From NCBI GenBank assembly GCA_902794075.1, contig CADBGE010000001.1:76603-140602 (forward strand): DNA of 64,000 bases. Reading direction: 5' to 3'. Both the position numbers and the translations under genes were made by a program. The stretch is from an uncultured Erysipelotrichaceae bacterium. Its GTDB lineage: Bacteria > Bacillota_I > Bacilli_A > RF39 > UBA660. Below are positions 6,012 through 52,806 of this stretch, piece after piece. Position 1 is the first letter of the stretch. Every line of letters starts with the position of its first letter. The notes beneath the pieces are model-generated. The model ran no database searches. It was not told the origin of the DNA and worked only from the letters and a program-made list of their open reading frames with translations.

Positions 6012-7418
6012 TTAGCTATTGTCCTCTACGTTTTCGACACCCTTGTCCAATTCTTTCTGTTCACGGTTCATAAATGCAAATGTCTTAAGTTTCCAGGCAT
6101 GTGCAATTCCGTCTTCTTTCTTGATGACAATACCTTCTTGAGGTACATTATTTGTACAGTCAGGACTATTCATCTCCATGAAAAATTTCTCATCATCAGC
6201 AAGTGCAGAAATAAAGTTATCCCCATAATTTTCATCATTGAAAATATTAGGATAAAGATCGTATGCATACCCATAATAGAACTCATTAACAGGCTTAAGT
6301 CCAACTGTTTTACAATAATCCTGAACTTCCTTTGCACTATACTCATGAAAAACTCCATCAATATTTGTAGAAGTAATACGATATACAACAACCTTAAAGT
6401 TTACACCTTCCTTATAATCATCAACTGCGCGAGGAGGTCTACATCCATAATCATATCCCTTTTGGATATATTTACCATTAGGAAGATACCCAACAATTTC
6501 TGCATAAATTGTCATTCCTTTCTGTAGATATGGCTTCAAATAATCAAAACCATATTTCCAAACATCAACACTATAAAATCCTTCACCGGTTGTAGGATTA
6601 ATGTTTGCATTTTTAATGACAGACCTTGAACTATAGATATAGTCATAATCAGGATATGAATCTACATCAGTGTATACAGGCAATGTTCCGCCAAACTTAG
6701 TATATAACCAAGTTAGAATTTTGTCCCATTTCTTTCTTGGTTGTCTACACAATACTCGAGACGCAATCAAACTTGTACCATGCCACTTACTTGTGATACT
6801 AATAAGATCTGTTGGCTTAATTACCCAAGGCTCCTTACGAATCAAAATCGTATCATAATGGAACTTAAACTGTCCTTCAATCAACTTATTAAACCTCTTA
6901 AGCTTATTGTTACGATATTCTCCAGTATTGGTTATTGAAGTTACATTGGTCTGAACAACATATTTACGATTAATCCAAAATGTCTTTCCGTTATGTTCAA
7001 CTTCATCAAATTCAGTATTTATCTCAATGTCGGTAAGTTCAACATTTACAGAATCAAGAATCCAATCTTTAAGATCATCAATAGGCAACAAAAATCCTTC
7101 AGAAGCAAATCCGCCAAGCTTAATTGCTTTTACTCGTCCATTCTTATCAAAGAAGCCCTTCTTCTCAGGATTCCTATTCAATGCACTATTAGAATATAAT
7201 GACAAATACTCAAGAAGTGACGGATTTATTTGTGACATTGCAGGAAAATACACATAAATGCCTTTCTTCATGTCCGTTGAAACAATAATATTAAATCCAT
7301 CTACAACAGCAACCTGAAGCTTAGTGTATTCAGGATTTGGATGCTTTGCGAAATTATTAATCTCAACAATTTTTGCGAGATAATTTACATTTGCTCCCTT
7401 TGATTTTTGTAACTTCAT
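6012..7418 (-). CDS. RNA ligase (Rnl2 / DraRnl-like nucleotidyltransferase)
   Basis: 468 aa. Motif I SKWHGTS (compare T4 Rnl2 EKIHGTN), motif IV-like YAEIVGY and motif V-like EGIVIKKE...WKLK. An extra N-terminal domain is present. Confidence 0.65.
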   Translation of the reverse strand: MKLQKSKGANVNYLAKIVEINNFAKHPNPEYTKLQVAVVDGFNIIVSTDMKKGIYVYFPAMSQINPSLLEYLSLYSNSALNRNPEKKGFFDKNGRVKAIKLGGFASEGFLLPIDDLKDWILDSVNVELTDIEINTEFDEVEHNGKTFWINRKYVVQTNVTSITNTGEYRNNKLKRFNKLIEGQFKFHYDTILIRKEPWVIKPTDLISITSKWHGTSLIASRVLCRQPRKKWDKILTWLYTKFGGTLPVYTDVDSYPDYDYIYSSRSVIKNANINPTTGEGFYSVDVWKYGFDYLKPYLQKGMTIYAEIVGYLPNGKYIQKGYDYGCRPPRAVDDYKEGVNFKVVVYRITSTNIDGVFHEYSAKEVQDYCKTVGLKPVNEFYYGYAYDLYPNIFNDENYGDNFISALADDEKFFMEMNSPDCTNNVPQEGIVIKKEDGIAHAWKLKTFAFMNREQKELDKGVENVEDNS

Positions 7419-39651: not shown

Positions 39652-40035
39652 TGGTGGACCTTGAGGGAATCGAACCCTCGTCCAAGCAATTCAACCTATC
39701 AGCTTTCTACATGCTTGTTTCGTTCGTTAATTTCGGTAACAATCAGCCAAACGAACAAAACCGACCTTTTACCTATCTCATTATGTGAATCTACTCGACG
39801 GTATACTTGAGAGTCCTACCCCGTCCAGTCATCTGTAACAATGCGCTGTATATTCTTAAACCCAGTGACCAAATTTTTGAACCAGCGTCAAGCAGTCAAT
39901 CCTAGATCAAGCTGCGAGAGCAAAAGTATCTTCGCCATCTAAAAGTGTCAATCGAAAGTTTAAAGAGTTCTTCACGATCATTCCTCTGCATGCTTACCAA
40001 TTTGTCAACATTGCTGTCAAATCCAAGTAAGGCCC
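39652..40035 (-). ncRNA. ssrA: tmRNA (ssrA), phage-encoded, tag GEDTFALAA
   Basis: 5' GGGCCUUACUUGGAUUUGACAGC and ...GCAUGCAGAGG resemble the tmRNA consensus. 3' GGACGAGGGUUCGAUUCCCUCAAGGUCCACCA has a T-arm and an encoded CCA. The acceptor GGGCCUU/AAGGUCC contains G3:U70. The tag frame GGC GAA GAU ACU UUU GCU CUC GCA GCU UGA lies at 39936-39907. Confidence 0.9.
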
Positions 40036-43275: not shown

Positions 43276-43537
43276 AATCTTAAAATGTTTAATTTAAATT
43301 AGTTAATATATAATATTTATGTTTATTGTAATTATAATATAGAAAAGTAAAACTAAAAAATTTCAATATTTTAGGATTCTTTTTTCATATGTTCCATTAT
43401 TTTTTACTATGTTGATACCGTTAAACGGATGATTAGATGAATGTCCTTGAAGATCGTAATAGATCATATCATCATTATCATTATGATTAATCATATTATC
43501 ATGAATATTGTTTACACAAGTTAATTTTTAATTTTAG

Positions 43538-43609
43538 TTGCCTCGCCAGGATTCGAACCTGAACCAACAGCTCCAAAAACTGTTGTGCTTACCGTTACAC
43601 CATGAGGCA
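43538..43609 (-). tRNA. tRNA-Gln(TTG)
   Basis: 72 nt. Acceptor tgcctca/cgaggca, D arm gtgt-aacggtaa-gcac, anticodon arm acagt-ttTTGga-gctgt, T arm tcagg-ttcgaat-cctgg. Confidence 0.85.
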
Positions 43610-43620
43610 AAATAAAAAAT

Positions 43621-43815
43621 GTGAGTAGATTTACGAGCTACGGACTGTGAAGGATTTATGAACTTATCAACCTTCTCTGTTGCGTTGCCTCTTATGGCCT
43701 CTCACGATAACCAACACGTTTCATCAAGCGAGGATATATTCTCCAGTCTACATACAATAATTACACCGGTTCATTATCATACTTACACTGATCCTACTCA
43801 GTGGTCTATACTCAC
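43621..43815 (-). ncRNA. structured non-coding module (about 195 nt) closed by a terminal helix
   Basis: No credible ORF here. gtgagta (43621-43627) pairs with tactcac (43809-43815), and internal hairpins are present. Lies between the GIY-YIG gene and tRNA-Gln. Strand inferred from context. Confidence 0.3.
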
Positions 43816-43919
43816 ATTTTATATTTTCCATAATATATTCAAAGTGATGGTTAAACATCATCGCAAATTCACACGGATTAATACGATATCCTTTTAAGAC
43901 AAGTTGCTATATTATGGAT

Positions 43920-45035
43920 TTATTTTTTAAATGGTTTTCCAAATTTCCAACCATTATTTAAATATTCTTCAAATTTTTCTTTCGGTAATCTTATTACTTC
44001 ATCATCTTTATACATCCATTTTCTACCTTTATGTGGACTTGTTCCTTTTTGTTTCCAATGTTTATTTTTGTTTACTCCAACAAATTCTCCAGATATATAT
44101 CGTTTATCTGTTTTATCAACAAAAAATGTATTACCATTATTATCTTTAACGGCTACTTTATTTTTCATATATTCATAATCATTATTTCTAAATTTGATAA
44201 TTTCACCGGTTTTAAATCTTGGATCATTTTTATTAACTAATCCTAATTTATTTCCATTCTTGTCTATGGCAGGTATTTTGTTTTTGTAATATGATACAAA
44301 TTCACCAGATATATATCGTTCGTCTGTTTTATCAACAAAAAATACATTACCATTATTATCTTCAACAAGGATATGTGTTTTATAAAAATTACTATAATCT
44401 TTTTGTGACCCAATTTTTCGTTCAATTTTATTTTCTGTTTTTTCAGTTCGACCAATTTTATATCCTTTATCTAAATAATACTGTAATTTATCTTTTTGAA
44501 TAAATTTTGTTTCATCATCATTATGAATCCAAACTTTATTACTTGATGCAATTTTATGTTTTGTAGTGTCATTAACTTTAAAACCTTTGTTCCATCCATT
44601 AGATAAATATATTTCTAAATCTTCTCGTTTTATTCTTTTATTTATATAAACATTATTTTCAATTTTATAAATACAAACAGTATTATATTGAGAATTTTTT
44701 TCTCCTTTTTGTTTTTCAGAATTAATTTGTCCAATATGTTTTAACAGTTCTTCATCTAAATAATAACCACCAGGAACCATATTATAACAATTATTATCAT
44801 TAACTAATTCTTCTGTTACAATAGATTTTTCAAGTTGACAAAGCTCATTCCAATCATTACAGTATTGTATAATTTCTTTAGTAAAATTTTCTATACCGTA
44901 TTTTTTATAAGCCGCATGTAATCGTTTTCCAGAACCCATGTACCCATCATCTAAATTTGATGTTTTGTGAATTCCGTAATAAAAATGATTATTTACATTA
45001 TTTGTTATTTTATATAAATAAAAATATGTTTTCAT
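43920..45035 (-). CDS. GIY-YIG homing endonuclease (Seg-like)
   Basis: 371 aa. N-terminus YLYKITNNVNNHFYYGIHKT...GYMGSGKRLHAAYKKYGIENF is a GIY-YIG module. The C-terminal half is repetitive (FFVDKTDxRYISGEFV). Embedded in the tRNA array. Confidence 0.8.
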   Translation of the reverse strand: MKTYFYLYKITNNVNNHFYYGIHKTSNLDDGYMGSGKRLHAAYKKYGIENFTKEIIQYCNDWNELCQLEKSIVTEELVNDNNCYNMVPGGYYLDEELLKHIGQINSEKQKGEKNSQYNTVCIYKIENNVYINKRIKREDLEIYLSNGWNKGFKVNDTTKHKIASSNKVWIHNDDETKFIQKDKLQYYLDKGYKIGRTEKTENKIERKIGSQKDYSNFYKTHILVEDNNGNVFFVDKTDERYISGEFVSYYKNKIPAIDKNGNKLGLVNKNDPRFKTGEIIKFRNNDYEYMKNKVAVKDNNGNTFFVDKTDKRYISGEFVGVNKNKHWKQKGTSPHKGRKWMYKDDEVIRLPKEKFEEYLNNGWKFGKPFKK

Positions 45036-45095
45036 AATTAAAATCCATTAACCATTTATATATATAAAAATAAAATAATTAATGAAATAATTTTG

Positions 45096-45181
45096 TACCG
45101 GGAACAGGAATTGCACCTGCACTTCCTTCACAGGAAAACAGATTTTAAGTCTGTCGCGTCTACTTGTTTCGCCATCCCGGC
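45096..45181 (-). tRNA. tRNA-Leu(TAA), class II, non-canonical D and T loops
   Basis: 86 nt. Acceptor gccggga/tcccggt, anticodon arm acaga-ctTAAaa-tctgt, 17-nt variable arm. T loop is tgcaatt and the D loop aaacaagtaga lacks GG. Confidence 0.75.
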
Positions 45182-45195
45182 AGAGAATATTTTAG

Positions 45196-45267
45196 AGCCG
45201 CTACTCCGAATCGAACGGAGATCTCATGATTACAAGTCAAGCGTAATAACCTTTATACTATAGCGGC
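45196..45267 (-). tRNA. tRNA-Thr(TGT)
   Basis: 72 nt. Perfect acceptor gccgcta/tagcggc, anticodon arm cttga-ctTGTaa-tcatg (one U-U mismatch), T arm ctccg-ttcgatt-cggag. Confidence 0.75.
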
Positions 45268-45302
45268 AATTTATATAATTAATATAATAATGTTTTTATA
45301 AT

Positions 45303-45857
45303 TTATTCAAAGCATTCACTATATTTTTCAATATCTTCTACAGAAAAATATTTCTTATATTTCTCAAGAATTTTCAGTCCATGCTCATGAATATACTCAA
45401 GTAATGGATTTGAGTTCTTCAGTCCTCCTGATTCAAAATTATAAAAATATATTATTGCATCAAGATTATCAATAAAGTCACCTCTAACATCAATATCATT
45501 ACTAAATAGCCAATCAACAAAATCCTCATATAATTTATGATAACCATTCCAAGAACATATATTTCTATTCTTTCTATCTATATGTTTTGATTGATCCTTC
45601 ATTCTAATAAGATTTATTTCGTCATAACACAAAATTTCATCAAGTGCTATTTCAAAATTAAATTTAGAAAAAGGTCTTTTATCATTACTAAGATAAATGT
45701 GTATATGAGGTCTTTGCCTATCTCCGGCATTAGTTCCATGAACAGTAATATAATAATCTATTTTATTTAGTACAGGATATCCTATACTTGCCATTTCTAC
45801 TACATAATCCCATTCAGGATTGAACTGTTCATCCACGTATGTATTTAGATGTTTCAT
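45303..45857 (-). CDS. hypothetical protein with leader-like N-terminus
   Basis: 184 aa. Starts MKHLNTYVDE. Located between tRNA sub-clusters. Confidence 0.65.
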   Translation of the reverse strand: MKHLNTYVDEQFNPEWDYVVEMASIGYPVLNKIDYYITVHGTNAGDRQRPHIHIYLSNDKRPFSKFNFEIALDEILCYDEINLIRMKDQSKHIDRKNRNICSWNGYHKLYEDFVDWLFSNDIDVRGDFIDNLDAIIYFYNFESGGLKNSNPLLEYIHEHGLKILEKYKKYFSVEDIEKYSECFE

Positions 45858-45872
45858 TTTTATTATATTTTG

Positions 45873-45947
45873 TGGTCCCTGACGGCGCCGCCCCGTCCAC
45901 CCCGAAATTAAAAGTTTCGTGCTCTACTAATCATGAGCTAAGGAACC
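45873..45947 (-). tRNA. tRNA-Lys(TTT) with aberrant T loop
   Basis: 75 nt. Acceptor ggttcct/agggacc, anticodon arm cgaaa-ctTTTaa-tttcg. The T arm is gacgg-GGCGGCG-ccgtc (no TTC) and the D loop atgattagta lacks GG. Confidence 0.65.
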
Positions 45948-45953
45948 TATTTG

Positions 45954-46026
45954 AGCAGATGACGTGATTCGAACACGCAACTTTCAGATTGGAAATCTGA
46001 CGCTCTGCCAATTGAGTTACATCTGC
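45954..46026 (-). tRNA. tRNA-Trp(CCA)
   Basis: 73 nt. Acceptor gcagatg/catctgc, anticodon arm tcaga-ttCCAaa-tctga, T arm gcgtg-ttcgaat-cacgt. Confidence 0.85.
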
Positions 46027-46031
46027 AGCTG

Positions 46032-46115
46032 TGGGAGCGGGTCGACTCGAACGACCAGTCCAATTAAGGAATGGATTTACAGTCCATGCGGCTTCCAGTT
46101 ACCGGTTACGCTCCC
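46032..46115 (-). tRNA. tRNA-Tyr(GTA), class II
   Basis: 84 nt. Acceptor gggagcg/cgctccc, anticodon arm atgga-ctGTAaa-tccat, long variable arm, T arm ggtcg-ttcgagt-cgacc. Confidence 0.85.
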
Positions 46116-46130
46116 AATATTAAAGATTAG

Positions 46131-46296
46131 TCAGGTAAGATGGAATTGAACCACCACTAATATAAATTGATATTTTTAGATTTAGTACAATTAACATAAA
46201 CTACCAAATTCATATTACCTTTTATCCTTCCTGTACACACTATAGATAAAAACCTCCCATACCATCATGGGTGTGCTACCGTTACACCATTACCTG
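46131..46296 (-). ncRNA. tRNA-like gene with about 95-nt internal insertion, anticodon unassigned
   Basis: Perfect acceptor caggtaa/ttacctg, D arm gtgt-aacggta-gcac, T arm ggtgg-ttcaatt-ccatc. The anticodon-position hairpin cccat-gatggt-atggg has a 6-nt loop, and about 95 nt (two hairpins) lie between the variable-loop position and the T arm. Confidence 0.4.
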
Positions 46297-46301
46297 ATAT
46301 A

Positions 46302-46631
46302 TTATTCTTTAACGTCTTTAGACATAATAACTTCATCAGGATAAAATTCTAAAAATGTTTTAAGTACTTCATTATAAAATATATAAGTAACTAAGCCTTT
46401 TCTTGATGAAGTAATTGTTTTACTTAATGTGAAGTAATACTTTTCCGATTTGCCAATCATAGTCTTTCCAAGATCCCATACAATAATTGGTAAAACATTT
46501 CTATCGATCATATCAGAAATCTTTTTAATTATTTCATCAGATTTCATATTAGGTAAAGTACCATATATATGAATGATATTAGAACAATTAGATTTTGATT
46601 TTGTCTTAAATAATGAACTAAGAATATTCAT
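46302..46631 (-). CDS. hypothetical protein
   Basis: The track ORF 46302..46667 starts at a GTG that overlaps tRNA-Pro. The first ATG (MNILSSLFK...) is at 46631. Confidence 0.5.
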   Translation of the reverse strand: MNILSSLFKTKSKSNCSNIIHIYGTLPNMKSDEIIKKISDMIDRNVLPIIVWDLGKTMIGKSEKYYFTLSKTITSSRKGLVTYIFYNEVLKTFLEFYPDEVIMSKDVKE

Positions 46632-46652
46632 GATTAATTCTTTAAATATTTT

Positions 46653-46728
46653 TGGTAGGGTAAACACGGCTCGAACGTGCGACCTCTACATCCCAAATGT
46701 AGCATTCTACCTACTGAACTATTACCCT
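46653..46728 (-). tRNA. tRNA-Pro(TGG), CCA encoded
   Basis: 76 nt. Acceptor agggtaa/ttaccct, anticodon arm ctaca-ttTGGga-tgtag, T arm gcacg-ttcgagc-cgtgt, 3' ACCA. Confidence 0.85.
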
Positions 46729-46839
46729 TGGCGCCGCCTTACTTATATTTTTACATTCAGTATATATCCTGAACACTGGGGCCGTGCGGCATGTTCTTTA
46801 TGAAGCTTCTCCCCATCTATTGGCCGAATAGAGTATGTG

Positions 46840-46914
46840 CGGTGCGTACGGGACTCGAACCCGTGACCTCCTGCGTGACAGACAGGCATTCCAAACCAAC
46901 TGAACTAACGCACC
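46840..46914 (-). tRNA. tRNA-Asp(GTC)
   Basis: 75 nt. Acceptor ggtgcgt/acgcacc, anticodon arm cctgt-ctGTCac-gcagg, T arm acggg-ttcgagt-cccgt. Confidence 0.85.
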
Positions 46915-46920
46915 AAAATA

Positions 46921-46988
46921 TGTTTGATTTATCATCGTGCTACCGTTACACTAAGGAGTCGAACCTAATCTTATGATATAATCAAACA
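46921..46988 (-). ncRNA. permuted tRNA-like element: long closing helix + T arm + D arm, no acceptor stem
   Basis: Minus-strand RNA: tgtttgattatatcat-aaga-[ttagg ttcgact cctta]-[gtgt aacggta gcac]-g-atgataaatcaaaca. The ends pair over about 15 bp. The D-arm sequence is identical to that of element 46131..46296. Confidence 0.35.
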
Positions 46989-47019
46989 CCTTAAAAATTC
47001 ACGTGAACTTTAATTTTTG

Positions 47020-47088
47020 TGGGAAACAGAGGACTCGAACCTCCTAATAGATTGTGATTATCTGCAGTTTCAAAATCTAATACCACCC
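47020..47088 (-). ncRNA. tRNA-like element (canonical T arm, weak acceptor, no D arm)
   Basis: The 3' part is ggagg-ttcgagt-cctct-gtttccc-a. An upstream 6-bp stem tagatt/aatcta encloses 20 nt beginning ttGAAac (Phe-like). The 5' strand gggtggt pairs only with wobbles. Confidence 0.3.
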
Positions 47089-47153
47089 AATTTTAAATTC
47101 AATTATGTACACTCGTTGAATACAAATTTTGTGTAGAATCCCATATTTAAAAG

Positions 47154-47227
47154 TTGCGTGGGGTCAGATTCGAACTGACGACCTTCTGCTTATGAGACAG
47201 ACGAGCTGACCACTGCTCCACCCCGCA
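47154..47227 (-). tRNA. tRNA-Met(CAT) (fMet-like body, bulged acceptor)
   Basis: 74 nt. TGCGGGGTGGAGCAGTGGTCAGCTCG... closely resembles the E. coli tRNA-fMet 5' half. Anticodon arm tctgt-ctCATaa-gcaga, T arm gtcag-ttcgaat-ctgac. The acceptor 3' strand ccc-a-cgca has one bulged A. Confidence 0.65.
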
Positions 47228-47245
47228 ATATATTTATCTATTTAG

Positions 47246-47332
47246 ATGCCACCGAAGGAATCGAACCTCCACCCGAATCACCAGGGATGTACCTGCGGGT
47301 TCCCATGTGTATGCAGCTAACATACGGTGGCA
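47246..47332 (-). ncRNA. tRNA-like element, 87 nt, anticodon unassigned
   Basis: Acceptor tgccacc/ggtggca and T arm ggagg-ttcgatt-ccttc are canonical. The remainder (gtatg-ttagctg-catac hairpin, acccg...cgggt helix) does not fit a D/anticodon arm layout. Confidence 0.35.
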
Positions 47333-47380
47333 ATATAAAAAATTGAAATCCCTATAGGTAAATGTAAATCATCATTCATA

Positions 47381-47450
47381 ATCAATAGATGGGATTCGAA
47401 CCCATAATCTCTGAACGTTACAGCGGTAATACCGTTTGCCTAACTAATGA
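47381..47450 (-). ncRNA. tRNA-like element, 70 nt, anticodon unassigned, embedded in a longer closing helix
   Basis: Acceptor tcattag/ctattga (one U-U mismatch) and T arm atggg-ttcgaat-cccat. No 5+7+5 anticodon arm found. Flanks pair: ttgaaatc (47343-47350) with gatttcaa (47473-47480), and aatgtaaat with atttacatt. Confidence 0.35.
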
Positions 47451-47490
47451 CTGGTGAACAATCATTTACATTGATTTCAATTTTTATTTT

Positions 47491-47610
47491 AAAGTTGAAA
47501 TTCTTGCAAGATTGAATGCTTATCTCGGGATGATCTTCTGTCATCTCTGAGGTTGATTTTCCCCAGAACCATTATCAGTGTTCTACATCCGCATTCAAAA
47601 TTTCAACTTT
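47491..47610 (-). ncRNA. structured spacer module closed by a 20-bp interrupted helix
   Basis: aaagttgaaatt..ttgaatgc (47491-47520) pairs with gcattcaa-aatttcaacttt (47591-47610). Two internal hairpins: 7-bp tctgggg/cctcaga, and gatga/tcatc with a 7-nt loop. Confidence 0.3.
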
Positions 47611-47614
47611 ATTG

Positions 47615-47689
47615 TACTGCCAACGGGACTCGAACCCGTAATCTCCGCCGTGAAAGGGCGACGTCCTAAACCAATTAGACGATGGCAGC
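47615..47689 (-). tRNA. tRNA-Glu(TTC)
   Basis: 75 nt. Acceptor gctgcca/tggcagt (G1-U72), anticodon arm tcgcc-ctTTCac-ggcgg, T arm acggg-ttcgagt-cccgt. Confidence 0.8.
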
Positions 47690-47919
47690 ATATTGAGATT
47701 TCACAGTAATCTCAAAACTGTATACGTGAGCAATTTGATATGGAGTGTACTGCTCATTGATTCATGTTGTGATCTCAACAGTTATCTCTCCTGAATGGAA
47801 CATTATCCGGAATAATTCCAAACCATCGGACCTTACTCAGATTTGAATTACATCAGGGATCTCTCAGGAAAATTTCCGAGGCTGATTTGTATCTGCAATA
47901 AAACCAGCAAACATTTTTG

Positions 47920-47991
47920 CGCTTGTGGAGAATTACGATATCCCGACCTAGTGGTTAACAGCCACTCGCTCTACCTCTGAGCTACACAAGC
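47920..47991 (-). tRNA. tRNA-Asn(GTT) with unusual T loop
   Basis: 72 nt. Perfect acceptor gcttgtg/cacaagc, anticodon arm agtgg-ctGTTaa-ccact. T arm gggat-atcgtaa-ttctc (A at position 54, 53-61 unpaired). Confidence 0.7.
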
Positions 47992-48000
47992 ATATTTCAT

Positions 48001-48103
48001 AATCAACCGAACTTATCGTCACTTCATCGATAACATAGCACTTTGTGCCTCATTTATCATTACAAACAGAAGTTAGACTAAACAAAACGTTTAACTGTTG
48101 ATT
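48001..48103 (-). ncRNA. structured spacer module closed by a 7-bp helix
   Basis: aatcaac (48001-48007) pairs with gttgatt (48097-48103). Internal hairpin ttatcg/cgataa. Lies between tRNA-Asn and tRNA-Val. Confidence 0.25.
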
Positions 48104-48114
48104 ACGAAGTTTTG

Positions 48115-48189
48115 TGGGCAATGTTGGATTCGAACCAACGACCCCTTGCTTGTAAGGCAAGTGCTCTGAACCAGCTGAGCTAATTCCCC
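48115..48189 (-). tRNA. tRNA-Val(TAC)
   Basis: 75 nt. Acceptor ggggaat/attgccc (one G-G mismatch), anticodon arm cttgc-ctTACaa-gcaag, T arm gttgg-ttcgaat-ccaac. Confidence 0.8.
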
Positions 48190-48276
48190 AGAAAAGTGGT
48201 GTCCTAACAATTAAACGACAAATTTTAAAAAATTTGATTGAGTTCATACCCCAATATCTCCACCAAAATAATTTAC

Positions 48277-48385
48277 GAAACTGACATATTGAAATTCTGT
48301 GCAGTAAACCATGAATTGTAATTTAGTACGTTCTACTAAGTGCACCAATTATTCTAAGGTTAATTTCAACTTAGGTATCAGTTTC
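48277..48385 (-). ncRNA. structured spacer module closed by an 8-bp helix
   Basis: gaaactga (48277-48284) pairs with tcagtttc (48378-48385). A nested 8-bp helix ttgaaatt/aatttcaa and the hairpin tagta-cgttc-tacta are also present. Confidence 0.3.
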
Positions 48386-48386
48386 T

Positions 48387-48504
48387 AAATGAGAATAAAC
48401 AATACTTACGAATTGCCACCAATAAGCATCGTATAAAGAAATAAGGGAGTCTATAAGGAGGCAATTTTCTCTGCTTATACTTGCCTTTCATTCTATTCTC
48501 ATTT
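48387..48504 (-). ncRNA. structured spacer module closed by a 10-bp helix, pseudoknot-like interior
   Basis: aaatgagaat (48387-48396) pairs with attctcattt (48495-48504). Inside, aattgcc...ataagca...ggcaatt...tgcttat are interleaved 7-bp complements. Confidence 0.3.
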
Positions 48505-48506
48505 TG

Positions 48507-48595
48507 CGGAAGCTGAGGGATTCGAACCCCCGGAACCTTGTTAAGGCTCGCCGGTTTTCAAGACCGGTGCAATCGACCAACTCTGCCAAACTTCC
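48507..48595 (-). tRNA. tRNA-Ser(TGA), class II
   Basis: 89 nt. Acceptor ggaagtt/agcttcc, anticodon arm ccggt-ctTGAaa-accgg, long variable arm, T arm ggggg-ttcgaat-ccctc. Close to E. coli tRNA-Ser(UGA). Confidence 0.85.
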
Positions 48596-48911
48596 GTAAT
48601 ATTAAATAATATAAAAATAAGTGTGTTGTTAAACCAAAAAATCCATAGTGTTCTTATGAACGTATGTGATCTTGACCAGAACAACTAAGGCCATTATATC
48701 ACATTACTCAGGTTCCGCCTGAACTGTTCCTGCAACCTCTTTCACTATTTGTCATGGATTTGATTTCAGCTACTTGAGACAGTTCTGATACTTTCAGACA
48801 TAGTTACAATTTACTCTTTAAAAGATGGACACTTTCAATCCCACTTCCTTATTTATATTATCGTATTCAGTATTTCCAACATGTCAAAGAACTTTGTTTT
48901 GTTGTTTTTAT
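48596..48911 (-). ncRNA. promoter-proximal leader RNA upstream of tRNA-Ser (paralogue of 50467..50720)
   Basis: No credible ORF here. Shares the 15-mer ccaacatgtcaaaga (48876-48890), ttgtcatggattt (48749-48761) and gcaacctc (48732-48739), in the same order, with the 50.5-50.7 kb segment. Preceded by a consensus promoter. Confidence 0.35.
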
Positions 48912-48917
48912 ATAATC

Positions 48918-48946
48918 AATATATAAATGATTATATGAAAATTCAA
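48918..48946 (-). promoter_or_regulatory. sigma-70-like promoter TTGAAT-N17-TATATT
   Basis: Minus strand: TTGAAT (48946-48941), 17 nt, TATATT (48923-48918). Drives the leader RNA / tRNA-Ser sub-cluster. Confidence 0.55.
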
Positions 48947-49004
48947 ACTTTTTTAATTTTTTGCACCCGAAGTGAAACTCGTCATCTCAGCAAAATATTT
49001 TAAG

Positions 49005-49079
49005 TGGACCCAGAGGGTCATGATCCCCCGACCTTGACATTATGAGTGTCCTGCTCTATACCAACTGAGCTATGGGTCC
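49005..49079 (-). tRNA. tRNA with CAT anticodon (Met or Ile2), unusual T loop
   Basis: 75 nt. Perfect acceptor ggaccca/tgggtcc, anticodon arm ggaca-ctCATaa-tgtca (27-43 mismatch), T arm ggggg-atcatga-ccctc (A at position 54). Confidence 0.65.
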
Positions 49080-49960
49080 TATTTCATTTTTCTACCTTTT
49101 ATCCAACCGTTGTTAATATAATCATTAAGTTCTTCTTTTTTAATTTTTATATTAATTGGTTTATTATTTTCATCAAATTTATAAATCCAGCATGTCCCGT
49201 ATTGTGAATTATTTTTACCCTTACCGTGATTTATTAATTTATATGTTTCTTTTTGTTTTTTAATTGATTCAGGTTTATGTTTTCTTCCAGTCCATATACA
49301 TTTTAATTCTCCAGATAAATATCTTGGATCATCAACTGAAACAGAATAATAATTTCCGTTTTTATCTTTTACAGATACTTTATTTTTTCCTAAAGCAATA
49401 TATTCACCAGATATATATCTTGGATCATCAACTGAAACAGAATAATAATTTCCATTTTTATCTTTTACTGTTATTTTGTTTTTTGTTAAAGCTTCATAAA
49501 TTTCTTTGTTATATTCTTCCTTTTTTATCATCAAATGTTCTCCTGTTGATTTTATTTTTACAGGAATTAAACCTTTTGTTGATGGTGTGTATTCACCGCT
49601 CATATATTTTGGATCATTTTTTGAACATCTAAAATAGTTTCCGTCTTTATCTTTTACAGGCACAGAACCATACGTATTCCATCCTTTTCCGCCACATTGA
49701 ATATTATAACATTCAGGATCATGAACTAAATCTTCTGTAACAATTTCAGATTCATATTGATATGCCTCATTTATAGTATTAAAATATTTTAATATTTCTT
49801 TACTAAAGTTTTCAATACCATATTTCTTATATGCATATTTTAATCTTGTGCCTGAACCCATATATCCATCATCTAAATTATCTGTACAATGTACACCATA
49901 ATAAAAATGATTATTTATATTATTTGTTATTTTATAGAAATAATTGTATTTTCTTTTCAT
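49079..49960 (-). CDS. GIY-YIG homing endonuclease (Seg-like), second copy
   Basis: The track ORF starts at TTG 49969. The ATG at 49960 gives MKRKYNYFYKITNNINNHFYYGVHCT...GYMGSG...YGIENF. The TAG stop abuts the tRNA 5' end. C-terminal repeats KDKNGNYYSVSVDDPRY(I/L)SGE. Confidence 0.8.
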   Translation of the reverse strand: MKRKYNYFYKITNNINNHFYYGVHCTDNLDDGYMGSGTRLKYAYKKYGIENFSKEILKYFNTINEAYQYESEIVTEDLVHDPECYNIQCGGKGWNTYGSVPVKDKDGNYFRCSKNDPKYMSGEYTPSTKGLIPVKIKSTGEHLMIKKEEYNKEIYEALTKNKITVKDKNGNYYSVSVDDPRYISGEYIALGKNKVSVKDKNGNYYSVSVDDPRYLSGELKCIWTGRKHKPESIKKQKETYKLINHGKGKNNSQYGTCWIYKFDENNKPINIKIKKEELNDYINNGWIKGRKMK

Positions 49961-50032
49961 AATGTTCAATGATATTTTATATATATTTATATTGAACTAT
50001 ATAATTAAAAATAATAAATTATTTCTAATTAG

Positions 50033-50106
50033 TAGGGATGATGGGTACTGCCCCCACTATCTCGAATTTATAAGATTCGCGCTTCTACTGTCTAAGCTAC
50101 ATCCCA
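50033..50106 (-). tRNA. tRNA-Ile(TAT) with aberrant T loop
   Basis: 74 nt. Anticodon arm cgaat-ctTATaa-attcg, acceptor gggatg/catccc (6 bp plus a terminal U-U). T arm gtggg-GGCAGTA-cccat, and the D loop agacagtag lacks GG. Confidence 0.6.
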
Positions 50107-50113
50107 ATGTTTG

Positions 50114-50187
50114 TGGAGCCATGGGGAGTCGAACCCCAGACCTTCTGCGTGCAAAGCAGACGCTCTACCAAACTGAGCTATGACCCC
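50114..50187 (-). tRNA. tRNA-Ala(TGC)
   Basis: 74 nt. Acceptor ggggtca/tggctcc with G3:U70, anticodon arm tctgc-ttTGCac-gcaga, T arm tgggg-ttcgact-cccca. Confidence 0.85.
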
Positions 50188-50190
50188 ATA

Positions 50191-50382
50191 AAAGTAAAAT
50201 GTTCTACACGCTCTGACTTTCACAGATACCCTCTAAAGATTTTAAAATCTCCCTTTAGCAAGGATTCCTTACCAAATATACAGATGCAACTCTGCCCCTT
50301 GCTTCCGCTCCATCACAGGCATACTTTATCAGCAGACGGTAAGATCTCTAATAAATTTCCTGTACCTCGAACTATTTACTTT
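50191..50382 (-). ncRNA. structured spacer module (about 190 nt) closed by an 8-bp helix
   Basis: aaagtaaa (50191-50198) pairs with tttacttt (50375-50382). Internal palindrome agattttaaaatct flanked by ctaaag/ctttag. Lies between tRNA-Leu(TAG) and tRNA-Ala. Confidence 0.3.
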
Positions 50383-50385
50383 TTG

Positions 50386-50466
50386 TACCCCATCTCCGAC
50401 TCGAACGGAGACCCAGTAAAGGATGGCTTCTAAGGCCACTGACTATACCAATTCGTCTAATGGGGT
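50386..50466 (-). tRNA. tRNA-Leu(TAG), class II
   Basis: 81 nt. Acceptor accccat/atggggt, anticodon arm gtggc-ctTAGaa-gccat, 12-nt variable arm, T arm ctccg-ttcgagt-cggag. Confidence 0.8.
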
Positions 50467-50720
50467 ATCTTATCTCAAACACTGAGGCTGTGAACCCTCT
50501 TGGATGTTCTCACCTGGCAACCTCCACAACTTGCCTTCACAAACAGCACCAAACAATTGTTTGAGATTTGTTTAGCACTCAAGGGAGCTTTTGTCATAGG
50601 GATTTCGCGTACTAATTTCCAAATGACTACTTGCATTATCCCAGGAATGCAAAAAGTTCTTTGTTTATCGGTACCAACATGTCAAAGACCTTAGTTATAA
50701 TGATTATTCAAATCATTTAC
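50467..50720 (-). ncRNA. promoter-proximal leader RNA upstream of tRNA-Leu(TAG) (paralogue of 48596..48911)
   Basis: Contains ccaacatgtcaaaga (50674-50688), ttgtcatagggattt (50591-50605) and gcaacctc (50527-50534). Hairpins ttgcatt/aatgcaa and a 9-bp atctcaaac/gtttgagat helix are present. The track ORFs here are implausible. Confidence 0.35.
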
Positions 50721-50726
50721 AATTAT

Positions 50727-50755
50727 AATATATAAATACCACAGAGAAAATTTAA
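50727..50755 (-). promoter_or_regulatory. sigma-70-like promoter TTAAAT-N17-TATATT
   Basis: Minus strand: TTAAAT (50755-50750), 17 nt, TATATT (50732-50727), at the head of the 50.7-49.0 kb RNA/tRNA/GIY-YIG unit. Confidence 0.55.
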
Positions 50756-50810
50756 ATGCTAAATTGTTAAAATATATAAAAATTTTAGATACTCAATTTT
50801 TGAAGTTTAC

Positions 50811-50845
50811 TGAAAAAATTTAGGGAACCCTGATTGAGGATTCCC
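50811..50845 (-). terminator. terminator candidate
   Basis: Hairpin gggaacc (50823-50829) / ggattccc (50838-50845), followed on the minus strand by a T-run (plus-strand aaaaaa at 50813-50818). Confidence 0.4.
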
Positions 50846-51046
50846 TTATGAAGTGGTATTCAATATTCTTAAGTTTTACGGAATCCTCAGTACACTTACA
50901 TACGCTTCTGGTAATGATATGTTTGTATCATTATTGAGTTGTGATTTTGATATGTATGTATAAAGTTTCATCCTTTGTTGTTTTATATAATATATATAAA
51001 AATATAAATTTCTTAAAGAAAAATTCAAAATTTTGCTAAAAAATAA

Positions 51047-51349
51047 TTAAAATCCTTCATCTCTTAACCATTCCTTTGCATGACGAACGATAAGTGCATC
51101 AATATCGCGACGATCACTAGCATTTTTATACTTATGCTCAAGCCATTCGAGACCATCATAATCATATAAGAAGTTCTCAAGGAAGTCTTCAATGTCATCG
51201 CCATCAGCAAGAGACATAACAACGGTCTCTACCCATTCCTTACCGTCTGTTTCATAATTTGAATCAAGAACATCCATATATACTTCATATAAATATTCGA
51301 GATCATCTTGACTTATGGATTCATTGATGTATTCTATTAAACTTTTCAT
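51047..51349 (-). CDS. small acidic protein with MKSL leader
   Basis: 100 aa. Starts MKSLIEYINE. Very Asp/Glu-rich. Confidence 0.65.
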   Translation of the reverse strand: MKSLIEYINESISQDDLEYLYEVYMDVLDSNYETDGKEWVETVVMSLADGDDIEDFLENFLYDYDGLEWLEHKYKNASDRRDIDALIVRHAKEWLRDEGF

Positions 51350-51417
51350 AATAAACTGTTTTTTATATATTAAAAATAAACTGTTTTTTTTTGCTTATAT
51401 ATTAAAAATAACAATTT

Positions 51418-52215
51418 TCATATTTCATATAAATCTATCTTTCCAGACATTCCTTCAAGCATGTCAAGACAAACAAACTTACAGCCATGATCATACTCAT
51501 TTTCCATAATCATTGAGCCATTTGTTAGTAAAGCCTTTTCATGTTCTGTAAATCCATCATTAGGAACATATGTTTCATAATGCATATGAAAATGACCATG
51601 AAACCAATATTTAAGATTCTTGCATATGTCAAAATATACATTACTTAATATTAGTCTATCGTTTTTTGCTCGTATGTCATCATCATCTGACATCCATGAA
51701 ATACGTTCATATTTTGGAGAAACAAACATCGGAGCACTATGGCTTACAACAATATCAACAGAATCAAGAAGCATTGAATTGTTTTCATTTACAATGTTTC
51801 TGTCATATTCTTGCACAGATTCTTTAGACCACCAAGTTTTATTTTCTGTTCTATATATTCTATCAACAGAGGTAGCACCACCAATGCATAATATATTGTG
51901 ATTATTTATTGTCAATATTTCATAATCTTTAATGAAATGAATATTACTATAATAAACATCTAATGGTGTTTCTGAAGTAAAGAATATTGGATTATCGTGA
52001 TTACCACGAATAAGACACAACTGTATATTATGTTGAGATAACTTTTTATTCATTCTGTTAAATTCATCAACATAATAATTTAGTTTATGGAAACCCATCC
52101 CAATATCACCACAAGCAAATACATAACAATCATGAAGCTGCTTCTGGTGTATCACATAAAATATAAGTGGCCGGAAATTTCCATGAATGTCTCCTATAAA
52201 ATATGTTTTGTTCAT
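51418..52215 (-). CDS. calcineurin-like metallophosphoesterase
   Basis: 265 aa. Ordered motifs GDIHGN, GDIGMG, GNHDN, SHSAP and GHFHMH. Lies directly downstream of the interrupted tRNA-Arg gene. Confidence 0.8.
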   Translation of the reverse strand: MNKTYFIGDIHGNFRPLIFYVIHQKQLHDCYVFACGDIGMGFHKLNYYVDEFNRMNKKLSQHNIQLCLIRGNHDNPIFFTSETPLDVYYSNIHFIKDYEILTINNHNILCIGGATSVDRIYRTENKTWWSKESVQEYDRNIVNENNSMLLDSVDIVVSHSAPMFVSPKYERISWMSDDDDIRAKNDRLILSNVYFDICKNLKYWFHGHFHMHYETYVPNDGFTEHEKALLTNGSMIMENEYDHGCKFVCLDMLEGMSGKIDLYEI

Positions 52216-52231
52216 TTGTGTTTTCTTTTTG

Positions 52232-52380
52232 TACCCCAGGTGCGATTCGAACGCACAACTTACGGCTTAGTTCTCGTGTAAGGAATTGAACCTTTATTTT
52301 ACCTGGTCACGAGATTTTGAATTTTTCGTAAAATTCTAACGTAAGAAGGCCGTTACTCTTTCCAATTGAGTTACTGGGGC
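52232..52380 (-). tRNA. tRNA-Arg(TCT) gene interrupted by a 75-nt insertion in the anticodon loop
   Basis: 5' part 52380-52344: gccccag-ta-actc-aattggaaa-gagt-a-acggc-cttct. 3' part 52268-52232: aa-gccgt-aagtt-gtgcg-ttcgaat-cgcac-ctggggt-a. Joined, the loop reads CUUCUAA as in E. coli tRNA-Arg(UCU). The insertion is 52343-52269. Confidence 0.7.
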
Positions 52381-52386
52381 AATTAC

Positions 52387-52415
52387 ATTATATAATTATA
52401 ATATATAACTTTCAA
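52387..52415 (-). promoter_or_regulatory. near-consensus sigma-70 promoter TTGAAA-N17-TATAAT
   Basis: Minus strand: TTGAAA (52415-52410), exactly 17 nt, TATAAT (52392-52387), then 6 nt to the tRNA-Arg 5' G at 52380. Confidence 0.6.
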
Positions 52416-52425
52416 GTCATTTAGT

Positions 52426-52806
52426 TTAAAAACAAGGATCTCTATAATTATCTGCAGAACCAAATCTTACTGAGCAAGTTTCCCAGAGTCCAGAACCCTT
52501 TGGAAGCCATCGACCATTCTTGCGAAGAGTATATTCAGTACCTTGATAGTATGATCCGAAGTTTTTGTACTTCTTAATTGCTTCCTCACCATCAAAATGC
52601 TCCGGATCTTTAATGTATGCTTCATAATCAGTATCATGCATATAAGTAACGATAACTTTCTTTGGAGATTTTACTTCAAGAACAATCATTGCATATCTAT
52701 CAGATCCAACGAACATTGTTGCTGGCATTCCAACTTTCGGAGTCTCATTAGCACGAGTATTCATTACTTCATTGATGCAAGCATGAGAAATAGAAGAAAC
52801 TGTCAT
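52426..52806 (-). CDS. hypothetical protein
   Basis: 126 aa, ATG start. Confidence 0.6.
   Translation of the reverse strand: MTVSSISHACINEVMNTRANETPKVGMPATMFVGSDRYAMIVLEVKSPKKVIVTYMHDTDYEAYIKDPEHFDGEEAIKKYKNFGSYYQGTEYTLRKNGRWLPKGSGLWETCSVRFGSADNYRDPCF

Follow-up and report, generated by a model that had tools for sequence, protein, structure and literature searches.

The window, the stretch of 64,000 nucleotides analysed here, is DNA of a Lak-type Prevotella megaphage, a giant gut phage, and at 52232-52380 on its minus strand lies a tRNA-Arg(UCU) gene whose anticodon loop is split by a 75-nt insertion (52270-52344). The insertion belongs to the nested tRNA-like introns of phage tRNA genes, which are widespread and unexplained and which constitute a mobile family. 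Somewhat better than even odds (roughly 55%) can be given to the reading that this is a promoter-driven tRNA-Arg(UCU) gene with a nested tRNA-like intron at 35/36 that, judging from its sequence, would be excised by the nucleases that process tRNA ends and resealed by a phage ligase.

Results

Host tRNA gene and its surroundings

Read directly from the sequence, the two flanks of the insertion form a cloverleaf with acceptor stem GCCCCAG/CTGGGGT (G1.U72 is a wobble pair), D arm ACTC/GAGT, anticodon stem ACGGC/GCCGT, T arm GTGCG-TTCGAAT-CGCAC and, once the exons are joined, the loop CUUCUAA. ARAGORN missed the gene when run without an intron search; with one, as an earlier note on this DNA had proposed, it placed a tRNA-Arg(tct) at c[52231,52380], interrupted by an intron of 75 nt. 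Folded as a whole, the 150 nt of the locus adopt the cloverleaf, the insert forming two hairpins (z = -3.6 relative to shuffled sequences), and these results bear out the note's view of a split tRNA-Arg(UCU) with a canonical loop when joined. As delimited by ARAGORN with introns, exon 1 (52345-52380, minus strand) runs from nucleotide 1 to anticodon position 35, ending in ...ACGGC CUUC, and this 5' half matches annotated phage tRNA-Arg genes; exon 2 (52232-52269, minus strand) runs from U36 A37 A38 to the discriminator A73, and CCA is not encoded. The locus is 100% identical across 6 other assemblies, a count that is a lower bound (at least six independent assemblies).

A predicted sigma-70-type promoter-like site, TTGAAA-17-TATAAT (52387-52415, minus strand), matches the consensus at 11 of 12 positions and stops 6 nt upstream of the tRNA 5' end, just where a near-consensus promoter had been noted; a comparable site, TTGACA-16-TATAAT, precedes the intron-less allele in L002. 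The metallophosphoesterase gene reported directly downstream is likewise present (51418-52215, minus strand; PF00149, E = 2.9e-10; phrog_1649). It begins 16 nt downstream of the tRNA, adjoins intron-less tRNA-Arg alleles too, and might possibly have a role in RNA end-healing.

The tRNA array also holds Seg-like homing endonucleases, which are promoters of gene conversion. A second ARAGORN intron call, a 'tRNA-Ser(act)' at 46130-46296 that likewise has a 75-nt 'intron', was rejected as a false positive: its cloverleaf is poor and it has no tRNA-like module.

Structure of the insert

The 75-nt intron, TTACG...GAGAAC (52270-52344, minus strand), was delimited by ARAGORN with introns and by a family descriptor. 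Because CT is repeated, its junction could lie at 34/35, 35/36 or 36/37, and the mature tRNA-Arg is identical for all three; the family rule described below favours 35/36 (52344-52270), while the limits first proposed, 52343-52269, are valid as the 36/37 version. Removal of the intron restores a 7-nt anticodon loop, and the intron-less allele in L270 has exactly this loop, CTTCTAA. The predicted exon-exon junction of the spliced tRNA is GGCCUUCUAAGCCG. Neither the spliced-junction pattern AACGGCCUUC|UAAGCCGUAAG nor an intron 26-mer has a DNA match in JGI metagenomes or IMG/VR, and exact exon patterns have no match in IMG/VR; the lineage of this intron is seen in ENA and Logan assemblies only, where the locus lies on contigs of 0.2-1 Mb. 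Among the samples with this phage are ERZ1029110, ERR2027898 and ERR3275103.

All features of the insert lie on the minus strand. Its first three bases, U-U-A (52342-52344), are the 5' splice-site motif, for which the family consensus is N|W-U-A. They are followed by a 5' domain (52319-52341) of two stems that could form an H-type pseudoknot. Stem 1 (CGT, 52339-52341, with ACG, 52327-52329) matches the covarying family hairpin, helix 1, and at only 3 bp is weaker than in most family members, whereas stem 2 (GAATTTT, 52330-52336, with AAAATTC, 52319-52325) is the hairpin of the minimum-energy fold. The hairpin pointed out in the earlier note is thus present, as GAATTTT-ACGA-AAAATTC with a loop of 4 nt rather than 3, and it probably represents the second stem of a pseudoknot in which stem 1 corresponds to the conserved family hairpin. 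The same loop-to-downstream pairing occurs in L086 Pro/Val, L106 Ala and L271. An A-rich linker, here AAAA (52315-52318), is common to all family members.

Beyond the linker, descriptor scan and family covariation identify a nested tRNA-like module (52272-52314). It comprises a 7-bp acceptor-like stem (TCTCGTG, 52308-52314, with CACGAGA, 52272-52278), a 13-nt core containing GG (52295-52307) and a T arm, AAGG-TTCAATT-CCTT (52280-52294), with a 4-bp stem; the tail A-C (52270-52271) corresponds to N73-C74 of the module, and the 3' splice site follows the C. Each helix is one pair short, with 7 of 8 pairs in the acceptor stem and 4 of 5 in the T stem, its outermost position being A.A. What had been described as a 12-bp interrupted helix capped by a T-loop is therefore a 7-bp stem and a 4-bp T stem with the loop TTCAATT; 'taagg' is not contiguous, the fifth T-stem pair being A.A. 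In Markov sequence a perfect 7-bp stem beside a T arm turns up about 1.9 times in 128 kb, which puts the probability for a given 75 nt at about 1e-3. No Rfam family was found in the insert, either in a gathering search of the window or in a permissive search of 52000-52600 (E up to 10), and the sole Rfam tRNA match is a sub-threshold hybrid (16.7 bits) of the host 5' half and the intron T arm. With 75 nt and no Rfam match, the insert is not a group I intron, as had been argued from its length.

A family of nested tRNA-like introns

The order of elements in the window intron, namely W-U-A, a small hairpin or pseudoknot, A-rich linker, acceptor stem, GG core, T arm and N73-C74, is the build of a whole family. 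It is found in the published Lak introns (Table S6 of PMC6784885) and in at least 12 IMG/VR examples from a two-T-loop signature search, and the same architecture is present in at least 15 tRNA genes from several phage lineages. In all 13 curated members the intron begins with ATA or TTA and its tail C is invariant (13/13), and the junction is unambiguous in at least 10 of the 13. Canonical pairs fill 103 of 104 cells of the acceptor stem and 62 of 65 of the T stem, GG is invariant, and stem 1 of the 5' hairpin (helix 1) covaries across the family. In the trimmed cores 99% of cells are paired, with double changes at 15 of 16 pairs, a level reached by 0 of 500 shuffles; MAFFT alignments of whole introns left the helices out of register.

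A descriptor built without the window member selects exactly 52270-52344, and it has no match in 0.83 Mb of cellular loci or in 3.7 Mb of Markov sequence. A covariance model of the trimmed cores (R1) missed the window element and also 10 of 12 of its own natural sources, and it was dropped after these failed positive controls. A two-T-loop scan of GTDB genomes returned whole tRNAs with partial 3' duplicates behind them and no nested introns. Family insertions always lie at 35/36 or 36/37, and their removal leaves a 7-nt loop and an anticodon that is right for the tRNA body. ARAGORN often gives wrong junctions or anticodons for such genes, calling a tRNA-Gln 'Pro' and a tRNA-Val 'Gly', and its anticodons for intron-containing genes were corrected by host identity. 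We found no demonstration of the splicing of any family member in the searchable literature.

Alleles at the same locus

Six haplotypes occur at the tRNA-Arg locus among closely related phages. L270 has the same tRNA-Arg without the intron, and L267 and L268 have the same tRNA-Arg with the same intron and, in the D stem, a compensatory replacement of A10-U25 by G10-C25. A second tRNA-Arg allele is intron-less in L002 and in L271 is interrupted, likewise at 35/36, by another intron of the family. In L269 only a 5'-truncated remnant is left, which lacks exon 1 together with the first half of the intron, so that the tRNA-Arg gene is dispensable in some lineages. Between haplotypes H1 and H2 the intron is identical at 74/75 positions and the exons at 67/75, and the exons keep their cloverleaf via compensatory changes in the D stem and the anticodon stem. 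Around the more distant phosphoesterase homologues (L001 and L003-L016) the equivalent position holds no tRNA, so these loci say nothing about the intron. The comparison of related loci that the earlier note had suggested thus yields alleles with and without the intron, along with one truncated copy. Taken together, same-locus alleles, compensatory exon changes and a covarying family favour its proposal of an unusual, protein-dependent phage tRNA intron, although the intron is no one-off, Lak introns having been reported in 2019.

Intron 3' ends and candidate enzymes

As written in the DNA, the 3' ends of the introns copy the ends of neighbouring tRNA genes. At loci of the window subtype, C74 is encoded in 86 of 87 resident tRNA genes and full CCA in none, and the introns end in N73-C; at loci of a second subtype, CCA is encoded in 47 of 49 resident tRNA genes and the introns end in N73-CCA. 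Introns of the second subtype have the same nested build with the 5' domain wholly absent, and span exactly from +1 of the 7-bp acceptor stem to CCA, a span that is proved for L042 (host tRNA-Gln) and supported for the others by isotype votes.

The window encodes a phage ATP-dependent RNA ligase (6012-7418, minus strand) that matches phrog_968 'RNA ligase' over its full length (E = 7e-35) and has weak matches to PF09414, to the PHA02142 OB domain and to TIGR02306 (DraRnl type). We infer its link to the intron, and regard it as the candidate exon-sealing enzyme. A P-loop kinase-like ORF (5322-5918) adjoins the ligase gene. Among the 146 loci examined, which are too short for co-occurrence to be judged fairly, a ligase homologue was found in one, L028, together with two intron-bearing tRNAs; Lak-A1 encodes Rnl2, a CCA-adding enzyme and Thg1. 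Sequence searches of the PDB with the ligase and with the phosphoesterase yielded no informative match.

Discussion

Proposed route of excision

From the arrangement of the intron we infer that excision would be protein-dependent splicing by tRNA end-processing nucleases and the phage RNA ligase (6012-7418). The tRNA mimic in the intron would attract the maturation enzymes of ordinary tRNAs, the cell's own trimming set: RNase P would cleave at the 5' end of the mimic, before U67 of the transcript, where TCUCGUG begins, and the 3' splice site would be cut after C74 of the mimic, C111 of the transcript, by the 3'-end endonuclease of the resident tRNAs, an enzyme of RNase Z type. RNase Z, however, normally cuts after N73, not C74. 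In the window subtype some 30 nt separate the 5' splice site from the predicted RNase P site downstream of it, so that precise excision by RNase P and RNase Z alone would be impossible, and a further endonuclease cut at N|WUA would be needed to release exon 1. The exon halves, with 3'-OH and 5'-phosphate ends, would be kept together by the tRNA body until the phage ATP-dependent RNA ligase seals them into a normal 74-nt tRNA. Against this route, the window intron has an A.A mismatch at the eighth acceptor position, which is paired in the other members, and a second one in the T stem, and the ligase lies 45 kb from tRNA-Arg and could instead repair tRNAs hit by host anticodon nucleases. The phosphoesterase neighbour and the P-loop kinase-like ORF beside the ligase would suit 2',3'-cyclic phosphate/5'-OH chemistry. 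Whether the family as a whole represents a third kind of tRNA intron, a mobile mimic that hijacks RNase P and a 3'-end endonuclease while a phage RNA ligase reseals the loop, is a broader proposition that we put forward tentatively, at a little short of even odds.

Alternative explanations

Because the module resembles a substrate of RNase P and 3' processing, its release is more directly predicted than religation, and the cut at the 5' splice site has no explained mechanism; the insert may accordingly stay unspliced, the tRNA-processing enzymes freeing the tRNA-like minihelix and tRNA halves that have a function of their own, for instance in regulation or in diverting host defences that target tRNAs, with no functional tRNA-Arg made. 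The intron RNA could itself be under selection, being better conserved than the exons between H1 and H2 (74/75 against 67/75), and Devoto et al. (PMC6784885) noted identical introns across cohorts. We nevertheless judge this unlikely, as a perfect cloverleaf is kept by compensatory D-stem and anticodon-stem changes, alleles with and without the intron alternate within an unchanged promoter and gene context, and insertion is always at 35/36 or 36/37, where removal leaves a 7-nt loop and the right anticodon; moreover, as many as 4 tRNAs per genome are hit, including isoacceptors that have no second copy in the loci examined. The tRNA-Arg might also simply be dead, broken by a mobile tRNA-derived element and now decaying. 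The truncated copy in L269 is what such decay would look like, and the Seg-like homing endonucleases of the tRNA array favour gene conversion, but at least 6 assemblies carry the locus unchanged, its promoter is intact, the diverged allele has compensatory exon changes, and at least 15 tRNA genes from several phage lineages share precisely this architecture, which together make a dead gene very improbable.

The intron might also remove itself in whole or in part, if the 5' hairpin or pseudoknot, possibly aided by the tRNA-like scaffold, were a new small ribozyme cutting N|WUA, whose 2',3'-cyclic phosphate/5'-OH ends would be healed and sealed by the products of ORF 5322-5918, the phosphoesterase gene (51418-52215) and the ligase gene. 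The 5' domain is conserved and covarying, with U at +2 and A at +3 invariant and pseudoknot variants in 5 members; phage tRNA loci are known sites of small ribozymes, HDV-like 'theta' ribozymes lying beside phage tRNAs; and the phosphoesterase gene is directly 3' of the tRNA, as the P-loop ORF adjoins the ligase. Against self-removal, that domain is only about 25 nt long with few invariant bases, the second intron subtype lacks it while keeping the nested build, the phosphoesterase gene stands beside intron-less alleles too, and no Rfam ribozyme family matched at E up to 10 (hammerhead, twister, pistol, hatchet and HDV-like were all absent from the matches of this 600-nt search), so that we consider a ribozyme quite unlikely. 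The pairing of TTCT with AGAA at the intron 3' end, to which the earlier note drew attention, can indeed form and would be the starting point for removal of archaeal/eukaryal type, in which a phage or host splicing endonuclease would act on a ttct/agaa bulge-helix-bulge followed by RtcB ligation; RtcB does occur in some distantly related phages (L005/L006). However, no such motif can be drawn at any of the three junctions (1-2 of 4 pairs in the central helix, 0-1 of 3 in the flanking helices), AGAA belongs to the strongly covarying acceptor stem, the pairing competes with the minihelix stem, the junction is at 35/36 and not 37/38, and no splicing endonuclease or RtcB was found among the window proteins scanned. 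We regard this as the most improbable of the readings.

Implications

To our knowledge, bacteria and their viruses have been thought limited to self-splicing (group I) tRNA introns. If the preferred reading, excision by end-processing nucleases and resealing by a ligase, is true, it would represent a new splicing pathway, a 'process and ligate' form of tRNA splicing in the bacterial world, and would give phage RNA ligases a housekeeping role beyond mending host-inflicted damage. The tRNA-Arg locus extends the known hosts by one tRNA and holds the smallest intron of the Lak lineage, and its relatives amount to a natural experiment, in which one and the same tRNA either has or lacks the intron and two different introns share one site. 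From the comparison come predictions: the splice sites are the processing sites of the nested mimic, the 3' end is a copy of the ends of local tRNA genes, and the 5' cut falls at N|WUA. Annotation is affected as well, since intron-bearing genes are overlooked by standard tRNA finders or given the wrong anticodon, which distorts inferences about phage codon use and recoding.

Comparison with known systems

The window intron is not unique and adds to the known Lak-type introns, 'enigmatic' introns in Lak megaphage tRNAs having been reported in 2019 (Devoto et al. 2019, Nat Microbiol, PMC6784885). The hosts given there are tRNA Tyr, Phe, Thr and Gly, and tRNA-Arg(UCU) is not listed; no common architecture was described and no mechanism proposed (PMC6784885). 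Our analysis suggests that the 'Tyr(GTA)' hosts of that report (PMC6784885) are tRNA-Asn(GUU) with the junction at 35/36. The phage group is the same as that of the window, whose only BLAST relatives are Lak-B genomes, and in both cases the introns lie in the anticodon loop, share one build down to the final C, and are sporadic between genomes with near-invariant sequence. Lak introns have an 8-bp acceptor-like stem, whereas the outermost acceptor pair of the window intron is A.A; the latter also has the shortest core in the Lak lineage (12-13 nt, no D-like hairpin) and a pseudoknot-type 5' domain. Unlike the window gene, the tRNA-Arg(UCU) genes of Lak-A1 and Lak-B1 are intron-less.

Group I introns occupy bacterial anticodon loops in cyanobacterial tRNA-Leu, Azoarcus tRNA-Ile and Agrobacterium tRNA-Arg, and like the window intron are mobile and sporadic elements of tRNA anticodon loops in the bacterial world. 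They are, however, about 200-250 nt or longer, with a conserved catalytic core (P3-P9), a U.G pair marking the 5' splice site and G as the last base, whereas the window intron has 75 nt, a terminal C and no match to group I in Rfam. Archaeal and eukaryal tRNA introns lie at position 37/38 and are removed by a splicing endonuclease plus RtcB or Trl1 from a bulge-helix-bulge, a motif of two 3-nt bulges that hold the splice sites and a 4-bp helix between them. Like the window intron they are short and located in the anticodon loop, and they are protein-spliced, as it would be by the proposed route, but a nested tRNA-like module has no counterpart there.

Closer in their enzymes are polycistronic tRNA precursors, such as that of the phage T4 tRNA cluster, which mature through RNase P together with RNase Z or RNase E. 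As in the window intron, a tRNA-shaped unit (acceptor, T arm and local 3' end) lies inside a longer transcript, and release of the window module is predicted via the same end-processing enzymes. Tandem tRNAs need no religation, whereas the window module is nested in the anticodon loop of another tRNA, so that its release would break the host tRNA and religation would be needed. For that step the parallel is T4 Pnkp/Rnl1, which mends the anticodon-loop breaks made by PrrC: there, as in the proposed route, a phage RNA ligase seals a break in the anticodon loop, the two halves being kept in place by the tRNA body, although the window ligase is, weakly, DraRnl/Rnl5-like rather than Rnl1-like. The T4 break is a host attack that leaves 2',3'-cyclic phosphate/5'-OH ends in need of healing, whereas the break in the window tRNA-Arg would be programmed and would serve to remove 75 nt.

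The interrupted tRNA-Arg(UCU) gene and its surroundings

Read along the minus strand from 52380 to 52232, the locus opens with a tRNA 5' part (GCCCCAG TA ACTC AATTGGAAA GAGT A ACGGC CTTC), continues between CTTC and TAA with the insert TTACG...GAGAAC, and closes with TAA GCCGT AAGTT GTGCG TTCGAAT CGCAC CTGGGGT A. The earlier note had proposed a tRNA-Arg(UCU) gene split by a 75-nt insertion, with an ARAGORN intron search as a check, and that search returns the same gene, tRNA-Arg(tct), with an intron of 75 nt. ARAGORN in default mode and Rfam at gathering score report no gene here. The 150-nt precursor folds into a cloverleaf plus an insert of two hairpins (-41.1 kcal/mol, z = -3.6), an energy matched by none of 200 shuffles, and six further assemblies, made from different samples, carry the locus base for base, ruling out an assembly artefact. 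A split tRNA-Arg(UCU) gene with a structured insert is confirmed, and the 5' half of the gene is similar to annotated tRNA-Arg genes in many phages. A repeated CT leaves three possible junctions for the insert (34/35, 35/36 and 36/37), all of which give the mature loop CUUCUAA; the earlier coordinates are the 36/37 version, one of three equivalent placements. The near-consensus promoter and the downstream metallophosphoesterase gene described with it are both borne out, the former as a promoter-like TTGAAA-17-TATAAT that ends 6 nt before +1.

Among phage genomes, the window has DNA similarity only to Prevotella Lak-B megaphages. Its tRNA array (15 ARAGORN-called genes, 43.5-50.5 kb) does not include the interrupted gene, which lies outside it at 52.2-52.4 kb. 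Rfam adds two minus-strand genes missed by ARAGORN, a tRNA-Asn(GUU) with loop CTGTTAA (47920-47991, 54.1 bits) and a tRNA with an aberrant T loop (50033-50106, 43.3 bits). An 86-nt tRNA-like sequence at 47247-47332 (minus) has a perfect 7-bp acceptor stem, a good T arm and a middle part that is long and odd; ARAGORN makes no call there, and the sole Rfam match is a weak tRNA-Sec (17.6 bits, E = 0.34). The window also carries a phage-encoded tmRNA gene (39652-40035, minus; ARAGORN and Rfam, 118.8 bits; tag peptide GEDTFALAA) and, within the array, two minus-strand genes for Seg-like GIY-YIG homing endonucleases (43920-45035 and 49079-49969). Positions 49778-49943 share about 80% DNA identity with segB/segD of T4-like coliphages, which is striking for a Prevotella megaphage.

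Alleles in close relatives

The neighbouring phosphoesterase falls in a 90% identity cluster with 19 other sequences, and the contigs of these relatives carry six haplotypes at the tRNA-Arg place. The window and the six assemblies share one type of exons and the 75-nt intron. Loci L267 and L268 have the same tRNA, with a compensatory D-stem change (A10-U25 to G10-C25) and an altered variable loop, and the same intron (74/75 identical). In L270 a tRNA of the same lineage (70/75 to the preceding haplotype), with a compensatory anticodon-stem change, has no intron and the loop CTTCTAA. A different, intron-less tRNA-Arg(UCU) occupies L002; exons of this latter type (72/74) in L271 are interrupted at the same 35/36 site by a different 74-nt subtype A intron (ATACAG...CCTGCC, 41/75 to the window intron). 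In L269 (150-305) a remnant is left, with exon 1 and the intron 5' half deleted, that begins inside the intron T loop (GGTTCAATTCC...). This comparison shows that the insert is precisely delimited and has been gained and lost over time, that two unrelated family members have used one site, that interrupted exons continue to evolve under tRNA constraints, and that one lineage has lost the tRNA-Arg gene.

An intron family with two subtypes

Read side by side, the published Lak introns and the window intron share one architecture. As a search signature we used a pair of T loops separated by only 26-33 nt, an arrangement that ordinary tRNA genes cannot produce. The IMG/VR scan gave at least 120 matches, and about a quarter of those listed were nested tRNA-like inserts in an anticodon loop; the same kind of scan across 185,579 species genomes yielded none among the 120 matches listed, which were whole tRNAs and then partial 3' duplicates. 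This evidence points to an intron family that occurs widely in phages and is missing from the sample of cellular genomes. ARAGORN junctions and anticodons of intron-bearing genes were often wrong and were corrected by identifying the body of the host tRNA; its host label Pro for a subtype B gene was discarded, the host being tRNA-Gln.

Subtype A comprises the Lak introns, the window intron and inserts in L071, L086 and L106, with junctions at 35/36 or 36/37. Its 5' side is W-U-A and then a short hairpin (stem 1), whose loop is of ARUAAA type or pairs downstream as a pseudoknot. Downstream of the hairpin come a linker rich in A and the 5' strand of an acceptor-like stem of 8 bp. The core is 7-49 nt long and invariably includes GG; the T arm behind it has a stem of 5 bp and a loop of 7 nt, and the intron closes with the acceptor 3' strand and one C. 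The window insert is a minimal variant, with a core of 12-13 nt, no D-like hairpin, an A.A outermost pair in acceptor stem and T stem alike, and a stem 1 of CGT/ACG only. The 7-bp hairpin noticed earlier is present, but would form the second stem (stem 2) of a pseudoknot like those of L086, L106-Ala and L271. Subtype B (L028, L042, L062, L112, L130, L045) is the tRNA-like RNA alone, beginning at +1 of a 7-bp acceptor stem, ending in N73-CCA (or CAA/CGA) and inserted at 34/35, in phages with CCA-encoding tRNA genes. The host in L042 (11057-11248) is unmistakably tRNA-Gln, with full-length matches to annotated tRNA-Gln genes, and only the 34/35 junction gives its UUG anticodon.

In the 13 subtype A introns compared, 103/104 cells of the acceptor-like stem are canonical, with 3-5 pair types at each position, as are 62/65 cells of the T stem; the tail C and GG are invariant. 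In the trimmed-core alignment 99% of cells are paired, with both-side changes in 15 of 16 pairs, a level reached by 0/500 shuffles (slid controls, 29-42%); these figures are somewhat inflated, the alignment blocks having been picked with the structure in mind, but the 3' blocks were set simply by counting back from the last intron base. Applied to the window, a rule-based descriptor derived from the other members picks out 52270-52344 exactly; it also recovers the known members, adds two introns, one Phe-type (Lak-B1) and one Tyr-type (L071), and has no match in 0.83 Mb of cellular loci or 3.7 Mb of Markov sequence.

To the single base, intron 3' ends copy those of the resident tRNA genes. At subtype A loci (window 43537-52380, Lak-A1, Lak-B1, L071, L086, L106), 86 of 87 resident genes read N73-C74 and then A/T, with CCA near the 3' end in only 4/88, the chance level, and the introns end N73-C; resident genes of this form, running into A/T-rich sequence, suggest a 3' maturation that keeps C74. 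At subtype B loci, CCA is encoded by 47/49 resident genes and the introns end N73-CCA; each predicted splice site there coincides exactly with a mature end of the nested mimic of a tRNA.

Processing and alternative explanations

The mimic would be processed by ordinary tRNA-maturation enzymes, with RNase P making the 5' cut and the local 3'-end endonuclease the 3' cut. Both are hydrolytic and should leave 3'-OH and 5'-phosphate ends, which an ATP-dependent RNA ligase could join without healing. The candidate for exon sealing is the phage ligase ORF at 6012-7418 (minus; phrog_968, E = 7e-35; weak DraRnl-type signals). Directly after it lies a 198-aa P-loop ORF (5322-5918, minus) with weak thymidylate-kinase-like matches, which might be its polynucleotide kinase partner. 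Among the compared loci, the window ligase has a homologue only in L028 (9105-10220), which also has two subtype B intron-bearing tRNA genes (14-147 and 5316-5510); Lak-A1 has genes for Rnl2, a CCA-adding enzyme and Thg1. Because subtype A, including the window locus, has its 5' splice site about 30 nt ahead of the mimic, an additional cut would be required there, at the conserved N|W-U-A that immediately precedes stem 1. The U at +2 would suit a host endonuclease for single strands, of RNase E/G or Y type, and the cut could equally well be made by a dedicated phage enzyme.

Two other outcomes are possible. The RNA may be cut without religation, releasing a free tRNA-like RNA and tRNA halves, or the 5' domain may itself act as a new small ribozyme, whose cleavage products would be healed by the adjacent phosphoesterase and the kinase-like ORF; Rfam finds neither a group I core nor a known ribozyme at the insert. 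Splicing as a group I intron, already dismissed in the earlier note, is poorly supported, and so is bulge-helix-bulge splicing, whose motif is absent from the insert. Related loci had also been proposed as a check for a decaying pseudogene: the L269 remnant is a truncated copy, but a plain pseudogene is a poorly supported account of the tRNA-Arg gene.

Comparison with the published Lak introns

Devoto et al. (2019; PMC6784885) termed the Lak tRNA introns enigmatic, without an Rfam match, noted that the intron in tRNA-Thr resembles a tRNA, and listed the sequences in their Table S6; tRNA-Arg(UCU) is not among the hosts, and only one intron is listed for B genomes. In Lak-A1 and Lak-B1, tRNA-Arg(UCU) is intron-less, with loop CTTCTAA. 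Our literature search found no later paper explaining these introns. The Phe-type intron in Lak-B1 (L026 31886-31971; MK250020.1, ~126885-126970; loop CTGAA|AA) belongs to the same family. The host published as Tyr(GTA) (Lak-A1, L025 35004-35168; Lak-B1, L026 34707-34922) has a class I body nearest to tRNA-Asn genes and, since a 35/36 junction gives the loop CTGTTAA, is probably tRNA-Asn(GUU); similar tRNA-Asn-like hosts occur in L071 (2224-2380) and L106 (3925-4065).

The earlier interpretation as an unusual phage tRNA intron was therefore largely right, but introns of this kind had already been noted in Lak phages in 2019. On sequence evidence, the window insert is an additional, putatively spliced Lak-type intron, in a new host tRNA and in minimal form. 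To the published description the comparison adds a shared architecture, a second subtype, presence/absence alleles and a specific processing model for the predicted splicing.
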